This document shows, one piece after another, positions 43,950-49,356 of a stretch of DNA of 64,000 bases. The notes beneath the pieces are model-generated. The model did no database searches. It saw nothing but the letters and a program-made list of their open reading frames with translations, and was not told where the DNA came from. Positions within the stretch are counted from its first letter, which is position 1; each line of letters opens with the position of its first letter. Location of the stretch: NCBI RefSeq assembly GCF_054482525.1, contig NZ_CM137006.1; one strand, given 5' to 3'. Both the position numbers and the translations under genes were made by a program.

Positions 43950-44819
43950 TTAGCGATCGTCACTTAAATTAAGTAACTGCTTATCAAAACGCGATTCCTT
44001 CAGCGCTTCCTTGACCCGCTTCAAGTTATCTCTGAATTTTGCACCGCGTCGCAAAGTAAATCCTGTCGCCAGCACATCTATCACGGTCAGCTGCGCAAGT
44101 CGAGAAACCATGGGCATATAAATGTCAGTATCTTCCGGTACGTCGAGGGTAATTGCCAGCGTTGCTTCCCGGGCGAGCGGGGTACCCGCAGAGGTGAGGG
44201 CAATCACCATGGCGTCGTTTTCGCGTGCCAGCTGCGCCAGCTCGACCAGATTTTTTGTTCTTCCCGTGTGAGAAATCAGCACCACCACGTCTCCGTCGCT
44301 ACAATTCATACAACTCATGCGTTGCAGCACAATATCATCGGAGTACACCACCGGAACATTAAAACGAAAGAACTTATTCATCGCATCGTGGGCAACGGCG
44401 GCTGAAGAGCCTAATCCGAAAAAGGCGATTTTTTTTGCCTGAGTGAGCAAGTCGACGGCGCGGTTGATGGCAGATTTATCCAGTGAATGACGGACATGAT
44501 CGAGCGTTGCCATTGCGGACTCAAATATTTTCCCCGTGTATGATTCAACGCTGTCATCTTCATTGACGTTGCGATTAACATAGGGAGTGCCATTCGCCAG
44601 ACTTTGTGCCAGATGAAGTTTAAAATCAGGAAAACCGCGCGTATCCATGCTGCGACAGAAACGATTCACCGTCGGTTCGCTAACATTGGCTTCCAGCGCC
44701 AGAGCAGCAATACTCGAATGGATCGCGTTATCGGGAGAAGCCAGAATGACCTCGGCAACTTTGCGCTCTGATTTGCTCAAATGTTCCAGCTGAGACTGGA
44801 TTTTTTCCAGCATATTCAT
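43950..44819 (-). CDS. hexR: RpiR-family transcriptional regulator HexR
   Basis: 289-aa ORF with HTH and SIS domains. Confidence 0.92.
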
Positions 44820-45156: not shown

Positions 45157-46632
45157 ATGGCGGTAACGCAAACAGCCCAGGCCTGTGACCTGGTCATTTT
45201 CGGCGCGAAAGGCGACCTTGCGCGTCGTAAATTGCTGCCTTCCCTGTATCAACTGGAAAAAGCCGGTCAGCTCAACCCGGACACCCGGATTATCGGCGTA
45301 GGGCGTGCTGACTGGGATAAAGCGGCTTATACCAAAGTTGTCCGCGAGGCGCTCGAAACTTTCATGAAAGAAACCATTGATGAAGGTTTATGGGACACCC
45401 TGAGTGCACGTCTGGATTTTTGTAATCTCGATGTCAATGACACTGCTGCATTCAGCCGTCTCGGCGCGATGCTGGATCAAAAAAATCGTATCACCATTAA
45501 CTACTTTGCCATGCCGCCCAGCACTTTTGGCGCAATTTGCAAAGGGCTTGGCGAGGCAAAACTGAATGCTAAACCGGCACGCGTAGTCATGGAGAAACCG
45601 CTGGGGACGTCGCTGGCGACCTCGCAGGAAATCAATGATCAGGTTGGCGAATACTTCGAGGAGTGCCAGGTTTACCGTATCGACCACTATCTTGGTAAAG
45701 AAACGGTGCTGAACCTGTTGGCGCTGCGTTTTGCTAACTCCCTGTTTGTGAATAACTGGGACAATCGCACCATTGATCATGTTGAGATTACCGTGGCAGA
45801 AGAAGTGGGGATCGAAGGGCGCTGGGGCTATTTTGATAAAGCCGGTCAGATGCGCGACATGATCCAGAACCACCTGCTGCAAATTCTTTGCATGATTGCG
45901 ATGTCTCCGCCGTCTGACCTGAGTGCAGACAGCATCCGCGATGAAAAAGTGAAAGTACTGAAGTCTCTGCGCCGCATTGACCGCTCCAACGTGCGCGAAA
46001 AAACCGTACGCGGGCAATATACTGCGGGCTTCGCCCAGGGCAAAAAAGTGCCGGGATATCTGGAAGAAGAGGGCGCGAACAAGAGCAGCAATACAGAAAC
46101 CTTCGTGGCGATCCGCGTCGACATTGATAACTGGCGCTGGGCCGGTGTGCCATTCTACCTGCGTACTGGTAAACGTCTGCCGACCAAATGTTCTGAAGTC
46201 GTGGTCTATTTCAAAACACCTGAACTGAATCTGTTTAAAGAGTCGTGGCAGGATCTACCGCAAAATAAACTGACTATCCGTCTGCAACCTGATGAAGGCG
46301 TGGATATCCAGGTACTGAATAAAGTTCCTGGCCTTGACCACAAACATAACCTGCAAATCACCAAGCTGGACCTGAGCTATTCAGAAACCTTTAATCAGAC
46401 GCATCTGGCGGATGCCTATGAACGTCTGCTGCTGGAAACCATGCGTGGTATTCAGGCACTGTTTGTTCGTCGTGATGAAGTGGAAGAAGCCTGGAAATGG
46501 GTAGACTCCATTACTGAGGCGTGGGCGATGGACAATGATGCGCCGAAACCGTATCAGGCCGGAACCTGGGGACCCGTTGCCTCGGTGGCAATGATTACCC
46601 GTGATGGTCGTTCCTGGAATGAGTTTGAGTAA
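45157..46632 (+). CDS. zwf: glucose-6-phosphate 1-dehydrogenase
   Basis: 491-aa ORF matching G6PD. Confidence 0.97.
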
Positions 46633-46657
46633 TATCTGCGCTTATCCTTTATGGTTA

Positions 46658-46673
46658 TTTTACCGGTAACATG
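46658..46673. promoter_or_regulatory. putative GntR operator (edd-eda regulation)
   Basis: TTTTACCGGTAACATG contains the palindrome TTACCGGTAA and resembles the GntR operator consensus as I recall it. Confidence 0.4.
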
Positions 46674-46711
46674 ATCTTGCACAGATTGTAGAACAATTTT
46701 TACACTTTCAG

Positions 46712-46745
46712 GCCTCGTGCGGATTCACCCACGAGGCTTTTTTTA
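46712..46745 (+). terminator. rho-independent terminator-like hairpin downstream of zwf
   Basis: stem GCCTCGTG/CACGAGGC followed by T8. Confidence 0.55.
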
Positions 46746-46866
46746 TTACACTGACTGAAACGTTTTTGCCCTATGAGCTCCGGTTACAGGCGTTTCAGTC
46801 ATAAATCCTCTGAATGAAGCGCGTTGTGAATCATCCTGCTCTGACAACTCAATTTCAGGAGCCTTT

Positions 46867-48678
46867 ATGAATCCACAATTGTTACGCGTAACAAATCGAA
46901 TCATTGAACGTTCGCGCGAGACTCGCTCTGCTTACCTCGCCCGGATAGAACAAGCGAAAACTTCGACCGTTCATCGTTCGCAGTTGGCATGTGGTAACCT
47001 GGCACACGGTTTCGCTGCCTGCCAGCCAGAAGACAAAGCCTCTTTGAAAAGCATGTTGCGTAACAATATCGCCATCATCACCTCCTATAACGACATGCTC
47101 TCCGCGCACCAGCCTTATGAACACTATCCAGAAATCATTCGTAAAGCCCTGCATGAAGCAAATGCGGTTGGTCAGGTTGCGGGCGGTGTTCCGGCGATGT
47201 GTGATGGTGTCACCCAGGGGCAGGATGGAATGGAATTGTCGCTGTTAAGCCGCGAAGTGATTGCGATGTCTGCGGCGGTGGGGTTGTCCCATAACATGTT
47301 TGATGGTGCGCTGTTCCTCGGAGTGTGCGACAAGATTGTTCCGGGTCTGACTATGGCAGCCCTGTCGTTTGGGCATTTGCCTGCGGTGTTTGTGCCGTCT
47401 GGACCGATGGCAAGCGGTTTGCCAAATAAAGAAAAAGTGCGTATTCGCCAGCTTTATGCCGAAGGTAAAGTGGACCGCATGGCATTACTGGAGTCAGAAG
47501 CCGCGTCTTATCATGCGCCGGGAACATGTACTTTCTACGGTACTGCCAACACCAACCAGATGGTGGTGGAGTTTATGGGGATGCAGTTGCCAGGCTCTTC
47601 TTTTGTTCATCCGGATTCTCCGCTGCGCGATGCTTTGACCGCAGCCGCTGCGCGCCAGGTTACACGCATGACCGGTAATGGTAATGAATGGATGCCGATC
47701 GGTAAGATGATAGATGAGAAAGTGGTGGTGAACGGTATCGTTGCACTGCTGGCGACCGGTGGTTCCACTAACCACACCATGCACCTGGTGGCGATGGCAC
47801 GCGCGGCCGGTATTCAGATTAACTGGGATGACTTCTCTGACCTTTCTGATGTTGTACCGCTGATGGCACGTCTCTACCCGAACGGTCCGGCCGATATTAA
47901 CCACTTCCAGGCGGCAGGTGGCGTACCGGTTCTGGTGCGTGAACTGCTCAAAGCAGGCCTGCTGCATGAAGATGTCAATACGGTGGCAGGCTTTGGTCTG
48001 TCTCGTTATACCCTTGAACCATGGCTGAATAATGGTGAACTGGACTGGCGGGAAGGGGCGGAAAAATCACTCGACAGCAATGTGATCGCTTCCTTCGAAC
48101 AACCTTTCTCTCATCATGGTGGGACAAAAGTGTTAAGCGGTAACCTGGGCCGTGCGGTTATGAAAACCTCTGCCGTGCCGGTTGAGAACCAGGTGATTGA
48201 AGCGCCTGCGGTTGTTTTTGAAAGCCAGCATGACGTTATGCCGGCCTTTGAAGCGGGTTTGCTGGACCGCGATTGTGTCGTTGTTGTCCGTCATCAGGGG
48301 CCAAAAGCGAACGGAATGCCAGAATTACATAAACTCATGCCGCCACTTGGTGTATTATTGGACCGGTGTTTCAAAATTGCGTTAGTTACTGATGGACGAC
48401 TCTCCGGCGCTTCAGGTAAAGTGCCGTCAGCTATCCACGTAACACCAGAAGCCTACGATGGCGGGCTGCTGGCAAAAGTGCGCGACGGGGACATCATTCG
48501 TGTGAATGGACAGACAGGCGAACTGACGCTGCTGGTAGACGAAGCGGAACTGGCTGCTCGCGAACCACACATTCCTGACCTGAGCGCGTCACGCGTGGGA
48601 ACAGGACGTGAATTATTCAGCGCCTTGCGTGAAAAACTGTCCGGTGCCGAACAGGGCGCAACCTGTATCACTTTTTAA
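46867..48678 (+). CDS. edd: phosphogluconate dehydratase (Entner-Doudoroff)
   Basis: 603-aa ORF matching Edd. Confidence 0.97.
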
Positions 48679-48714: not shown

Positions 48715-49356
48715 ATGAAAAACTGGAAAACAAGTGCAGAATCAATCCTGACCACCGGCCCGGTTGTACCGGTTATCGTGGTAAAAAAACTGGAACACGC
48801 GGTGCCGATGGCAAAAGCGTTGGTTGCTGGTGGGGTGCGCGTTCTGGAAGTGACTCTGCGTACCGAGTGTGCAGTTGACGCTATCCGTGCTATCGCCAAA
48901 GAAGTGCCTGAAGCGATTGTGGGTGCCGGTACGGTGCTGAATCCACAGCAGCTGGCAGAAGTCACCGAAGCGGGTGCACAGTTCGCAATTAGCCCGGGGC
49001 TGACCGAGCCGCTGCTGAAGGCTGCTACCGAAGGGACTATTCCTCTGATTCCGGGGATCAGCACTGTTTCCGAACTGATGCTGGGTATGGACTACGGTTT
49101 GAAAGAGTTCAAATTCTTCCCGGCTGAAGCTAACGGCGGTGTGAAAGCCCTGCAGGCGATCGCGGGTCCGTTCTCCCAGGTCCGTTTCTGCCCGACGGGT
49201 GGTATTTCTCCGGCTAACTACCGTGACTACCTGGCGCTGAAAAGCGTGCTGTGCATCGGTGGTTCCTGGCTGGTTCCGGCAGATGCGCTGGAAGCGGGCG
49301 ATTACGACCGCATTACTAAGCTGGCGCGTGAAGCTGTAGAAGGCGCTAAGCTGTAA
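48715..49356 (+). CDS. eda: KDPG / KHG aldolase
   Basis: 213-aa ORF matching Eda. Confidence 0.97.

Follow-up and report, generated by a model that had tools for sequence, protein, structure and literature searches.

Cra (FruR) is a LacI-family carbon-flux regulator. A FruR operator at edd was reportedly defined by Ramseier et al. in 1995, and the Conway laboratory is said to have defined the edd promoter P1 and its control by GntR. In published work, edd and eda are repressed by Cra, and loss of GntR derepresses both genes (PMC9648032). The operator consensus of Cra/FruR is given as RSTGAAWCSNTHHW (PMC5829826) and, in a palindromic form, as gcTGAAtCGaTTCAgc (PMC5888115). In synthetic promoters, serial Cra sites 3' of the −10 element reduce leak. 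Control of edd by Cra and GntR is long established, and the inverted repeat that we describe in the following is most likely an ordinary part of this well-studied control region.

Several described systems invite comparison with this region. The fruBKA operon has two Cra operators near one promoter, mutually inverted, with their strong halves (GCTGAAACG) on opposite strands and repressive in effect; these fruB operators, whose experimentally used sequences we took from PMC11157272, are 67 bp apart, have their strong halves directed inward and are both full matches to the consensus. As a positive control, a search with the RSTGAAWCSNTHHW pattern recovers each of the two with 0 mismatches. In the gal system, the LacI-family repressor GalR binds the operators OE and OI, which flank the promoter without touching its core and lie about 113 bp apart, the downstream one within the first structural gene. 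Lastly, there is the class of promoters located in terminators, and there are structured 5'UTRs with thermodynamically stable stem-loops 5' of the start codon. The edd control region resembles each of these systems in some respects and, as detailed below, departs from some of them in others.

The window, i.e. the whole stretch of 64,000 nt that was analysed (NCBI RefSeq assembly GCF_054482525.1, contig NZ_CM137006.1), contains in the region of interest the zwf-edd-eda locus of Escherichia coli. All three genes are on the + strand: the zwf ORF (45157-46632) ends at 46632, edd (46867-48678) begins with the ATG at 46867, and eda follows at 48715-49356. A segment of 381 nt across the zwf-edd spacer is present, together with zwf and edd annotations, in 5,425 of 5,426 complete E. 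coli genomes, and in K-12 MG1655 the spacer is the same as in the window except at positions 46681 and 46819. For comparisons between genera, we fetched 80 loci coding for close Edd relatives and aligned the spacers of those with zwf-edd order and a recognisable zwf end (GRSWNEFE*), which yielded an alignment of 43 sequences, the window and 42 fetched genomes. Four blocks are prominent in this alignment: the GntR operator O1, the zwf terminator, the hexamers around this terminator and the GntR operator O2. A small inverted repeat, TGTAGAACAATTTTTACA, is found between O1 and the terminator (46687-46704) and is kept in Escherichia and Citrobacter only; a speculative reading is that a further regulator may bind there.

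The original prediction described a perfect inverted repeat in the edd leader with 10-nt arms, GACTGAAACG at 46753-46762 and CGTTTCAGTC at 46791-46800. These arms and the 28-nt gap between them are real, but perfect pairing extends by one base outward on each side, so that the arms are 11 nt long: TGACTGAAACG at 46752..46762, whose T46752 is also the last base of the predicted −10 element of P1, and CGTTTCAGTCA at 46791..46801, from which it is 66 nt to the edd ATG. A perfect 11-nt inverted repeat with a loop of 3-60 nt occurs in 33 of the 20,000 sequences obtained by shuffling the 234-bp spacer; in the 64-kb window, there are six loci with such repeats (11 overlapping matches) versus a shuffle mean of 0.89 matches. 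The rarity among the spacer shuffles speaks against the notion that the repeat is a coincidence in an AT-rich spacer, with no function of its own, as does the observation that, in many genera, both cores stay at a constant place in the alignment and the sequences around them diverge. By contrast, the Cra motif does not cover the two outermost base pairs (TG/CA), E. coli strains differ from one another at positions 46753, 46754 and 46798, and the 73-nt segment with the repeat is conserved at 100% identity in just 3,123 of the 5,425 genomes, the other 2,302 having at least one difference; all of this would fit a coincidence. On balance, we regard this explanation as quite improbable. In each arm, 9 of the 11 nt correspond to the strong half of the Cra motif, RSTGAAWCS (46754-62 in the left arm and, read on the − strand, 46791-99 in the right arm). 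We consider it likely that the arms are the strong halves of two oppositely oriented Cra operators just 3' of the −10 element of edd P1. The inverted repeat would then most likely be a by-product of two opposed motif copies, and no RNA or DNA hairpin would have been under selection.

The setting of these candidate operators is defined by the preceding 40 bp. The hairpin that had been noted at 46712..46745 is the intrinsic terminator of zwf (46711..46745, + strand), which consists of an 8-bp stem (GCCTCGTG at 46712-19 and CACGAGGC at 46730-37) followed by T7 and is located 79 nt past the zwf stop codon. The predicted sigma-70 promoter P1 of edd (46724..46752, + strand) is built into this terminator: as in other members of the promoter-in-terminator class, hairpin and T-run together enclose the −35 element (TTCACC, 46724-29), which is carried by the hairpin loop, and the 17-bp spacer, in which the T-run lies, while the −10 element (TACACT, 46747-52) follows directly after the T-run. 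Each hexamer matches the sigma-70 consensus at 4/6 positions, and the combination TTCACC-17-TACACT is found exactly in 38 of the 43 genomes and in close variants in two more, even though the intervening stem covaries. Likewise, the loop GGATTCACC and the sequence after the T-run, TTATTACACT, are nearly invariant, a constancy that terminator function alone would not require. RNA-level covariation and DNA-level conservation of the hexamers coincide in the same 40 bp. Moreover, Shimada et al. (2014; PMC3946193) found a SELEX peak of RpoD holoenzyme in the zwf-edd spacer and list the same TTCACC-17-TACACT as its best promoter.

A simple promoter and terminator scan found neither element in this region. 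It missed the terminator because the loop of 10 nt is just outside the scan rules, and since the promoter, with a score of 8/12, also falls just outside these rules, we relied on conservation across genera instead. Two other promoter candidates were rejected: one over the GntR operator O1 (TTATCC-18-TAACAT), whose −35 region is not conserved, and one based on the conserved TTGCCC at 46766-71, downstream of which there is no −10 element. About 7 nt past the −10 element of P1, we infer that transcription begins near 46759, which lies in the left arm of the repeat. The start-site atlas of Kim (2012), compiled from cultures in which P1 is expected to be repressed, shows only weak starts inside zwf, while neither a mapped edd start nor a 3' end was found in the supplementary data of Ettwiller (2016) and Adams (2021), and those of Cho (2014) give expression values alone. 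In the literature, the sequences of the sites turned up solely in cloning primers. In the accessible papers, we did not find a published account of the overlap between the zwf terminator and the edd promoter.

The direct neighbourhood of a true RNA hairpin and the inverted repeat offers a clean means of separating protein-binding sites from an RNA stem, namely a covariation test on both in one alignment. In the 43 genomes, the terminator stem is paired in 91.9% of cells, with 37 doubly changed cells and compensatory changes in six of its eight pairs, and its pairing is matched by 0 of 500 shuffles; it is also the sole structure predicted in the RNAalifold consensus of the spacer alignment. The repeat stem, by contrast, is paired in 60.9% of cells, 434 of 500 shuffles do as well, and it is absent from the RNAalifold consensus. 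These values bear on the view that the repeat acts as RNA, as a stem-loop that is part of a long edd leader or of zwf read-through transcripts and controls the stability, translation or termination of the edd mRNA. Like the hairpins of structured 5'UTRs, the isolated repeat (66 nt as RNA) is thermodynamically stable (−20.2 kcal/mol, z = −4.66, a stability that none of 200 shuffles reached); its stem appears in the fold of 46650-46880, and both arms would be contained in a zwf read-through RNA. However, any perfect 11-nt inverted repeat would fold likewise. Unlike structured 5'UTRs, the repeat lacks covariation and a matching Rfam family, a scan of 46400-47100 at a permissive E-value returning only chance-level matches (best E ~1), and transcripts from P1 probably do not include its complete left arm: the RNA from the predicted start would retain 4 nt of this arm and folds no better than shuffles (z = −0.58).

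The pattern of conservation argues in the same direction. Across genera, the two arms are retained or lost independently of each other. Allowing one mismatch or fewer in site A and two or fewer in site B, as the candidate operators of the left and the right arm are called in the following, both are retained in 11 of the 43 genomes, A only in 15, B only in 8 and neither in 9; simple arithmetic on these counts gives an odds ratio for joint retention of ~0.8. For instance, Enterobacter and Lelliottia have kept GCTGAAACGC at site B while site A is decaying, and Atlantibacter and others have kept site A and not site B. Within E. coli, where the TGAAACG and CGTTTCA cores are fixed among strains, arm changes occur uncompensated, as in CFSAN061771 (G46798A), AST215 (A46754C and G46798A) and SCPM-O-B-8794 (G46753C), and a further uncompensated change is found in E. 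albertii. Independent retention of the arms, uncompensated changes and the observed absence of covariation fit independently selected binding sites and not a selected stem. Given these results, the omission from the RNAalifold consensus and a predicted start inside the left arm, the suggestion of a long structured edd 5'UTR read through the hairpin is not supported, and we consider an RNA function of the repeat highly unlikely. That the repeat folds solely in zwf read-through RNA, and thereby marks read-through versus P1 transcripts, is a long shot.

Of the two candidate operators to which we attribute the arms instead, predicted Cra site A (ACTGAAACGTTTTT, 46754..46767, + strand) has 0 mismatches to RSTGAAWCSNTHHW over the full 14-nt consensus, the asymmetric right half included, and its centre at 46761.5 is at about +3 from the predicted start. 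It is one of two perfect matches in the 64 kb, where 0.53 are expected. Predicted Cra site B (ACTGAAACGCCTGT, 46786..46799, − strand; centre 46791.5, about +33) has two mismatches, both in the degenerate half, and is perfect in the strong half only; the chance rate of two or fewer mismatches to the Cra consensus is 0.13% per position and strand. At its aligned position, site A shows at most one mismatch in 26 of the 43 genomes, and in many genera its W position is occupied by G (GCTGAAGCG) or the site is degenerate, while site B shows at most two mismatches in 19 of the 43 and a single one in several Citrobacter. In a comparative study, Escherichia and Salmonella are the only genera in which the Entner-Doudoroff genes belong to the FruR regulon, so that elsewhere the arms may be conserved for another reason. 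The original prediction had also considered paired protein-binding half-sites, and the arms do fit candidate protein sites; however, each would belong to a Cra operator of its own, with a centre-to-centre distance of 30 bp, and they would not be the two halves of one widely spaced site. The predicted edd pair shares with the fruB operators the features listed above, i.e. proximity to one promoter, mutual inversion, strong halves on opposite strands and a repressive role, but differs in its closer spacing, in strong halves that are directed outward and in the half-site match of site B.

The second perfect match in the window, GGTGAATCGTTTCT (44657-44670, − strand), is found ~150 nt inside the coding sequence of yebK, which encodes a hexR-like repressor (ORF 43950-44819, − strand); it may be a chance match or an intragenic Cra site. 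Separately, the stretch TTTTGCCC (46764-46771), directly 3' of the left arm, is among the best-conserved of the leader, with G46768 and C46770-71 invariant.

Beyond sites A and B, further Cra-like sequences occur in the region. A tentative third site, GGTGAATCCGCACG (46716..46729, − strand), has two mismatches and overlaps the −35 element; its strong half is the terminator loop, since the opposite strand of the nearly invariant GGATTCACC reads GGTGAATCC, a Cra strong half-site. This loop-embedded half-site may explain the invariant GGA upstream of the −35 hexamer. Downstream, ~60 nt 3' of the left arm, there is a degenerate third TGAA(A/G)CG element, AATGAAGCGCGTTG (46813..46826, + strand), whose core at 46815-21 is TGAAACG in K-12 and TGAAGCG in the window, the difference being at position 46819. 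In E. albertii, the full ACTGACTGAAACG is found at the position of this element, and the right arm is lost, mutated to CGTTTCTTTCA, which looks like the turnover of a secondary site.

The recurrence of the TGAAAC core, two to three times within 70 bp and including the third TGAAACG of K-12, would also be compatible with binding by a different TGAAAC-type regulator, such as KdgR, or with a composite operator whose two arms are bridged by one tetramer; furthermore, the TTTTGCC block beside site A is conserved beyond what the outer positions of the Cra motif, which carry little information, require. Yet another regulator is hard to reconcile with the perfect 14-nt Cra match of site A, whose asymmetric right half is included, and a composite operator would lead one to expect joint retention of the arms, which is not observed. 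KdgR, which controls an internal eda promoter, was rejected as the binder after a hand alignment of site A to the KdgR box gave ~5 mismatches. We therefore find both variants of this explanation improbable.

Like Cra, GntR appears to have two sites at this promoter. The GntR-like palindrome that had been pointed out at 46658-73 holds up as a genuine operator, O1 (TTTTACCGGTAACATG, 46658..46673; centre 46665.5, about −93.5 from the predicted start), with one mismatch to the consensus TGTTACNNGTAACA, a palindrome of the type TGTTAC-NN-GTAACA; it is nearly invariant in the 43 genomes, as is the block that contains it, ATTTTACCGGTAACATGATCT (46657-77). O1 sits before the hairpin because the edd promoter lies in and after the zwf terminator hairpin. 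A second operator, O2 (TTGTTACGCGTAACAA, 46879..46894; centre 46886.5, about +128), matches with 0 mismatches and lies inside codons 5-9 of edd. It is invariant across the 43 genomes, the synonymous third positions of its TTA and GTA codons included, and neighbouring synonymous sites vary. Apart from O1 and O2, the 64 kb contain no match to TGTTACNNGTAACA, the expected number being 0.08. The spacing of the two operators, ~221 bp in the window, falls within 219-223 bp in 35 genomes, while seven genomes have 212 bp and one has 214 bp; as the shorter spacing results from a leader deletion of ~10 bp, a 10-bp step, helical phase is kept across genera. In view of this arrangement, O1 and O2, which flank the promoter, probably act by DNA looping in the manner of gal OE/OI. 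In both systems, a LacI-family repressor uses operators to either side of a promoter whose core they leave free, with the downstream operator within the first structural gene, and the operators are about twice as far apart at edd (~221 bp) as at gal.

Combining these elements, we infer the following mode of control, in which the exact start site, the occupancy of each Cra site and GntR looping are the conditional parts. Transcription from P1, the gluconate-inducible promoter of edd and eda, would start near 46759, with site A covering the start and site B at about +33. At low glycolytic flux, Cra dimers at both sites would block open-complex formation or promoter escape, and rising fructose-1-phosphate or fructose-1,6-bisphosphate would release Cra. 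GntR would add a second layer from its operators at about −93 and +128, probably by looping. A more ambitious version, which we consider rather unlikely, would have the whole region act as a compact nested device, in which the zwf terminator houses the promoter, as many as three Cra sites of half strength lie at about −37, +3 and +33, and a GntR loop of ~221 bp is kept in phase.

A conspicuous inverted repeat in a leader can be merely two opposed transcription-factor sites, and in this case the distinction matters little beyond correct annotation. Three features would add new detail to a classic operon, provided that they are undocumented so far: site B, the site embedded in the terminator loop and the GntR spacing with its conserved phase. 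For the engineering of Entner-Doudoroff flux, a map of the edd control region may be of practical use: a construct in which the edd promoter is swapped and codons 5-9 are left untouched, for example, would retain one GntR operator.
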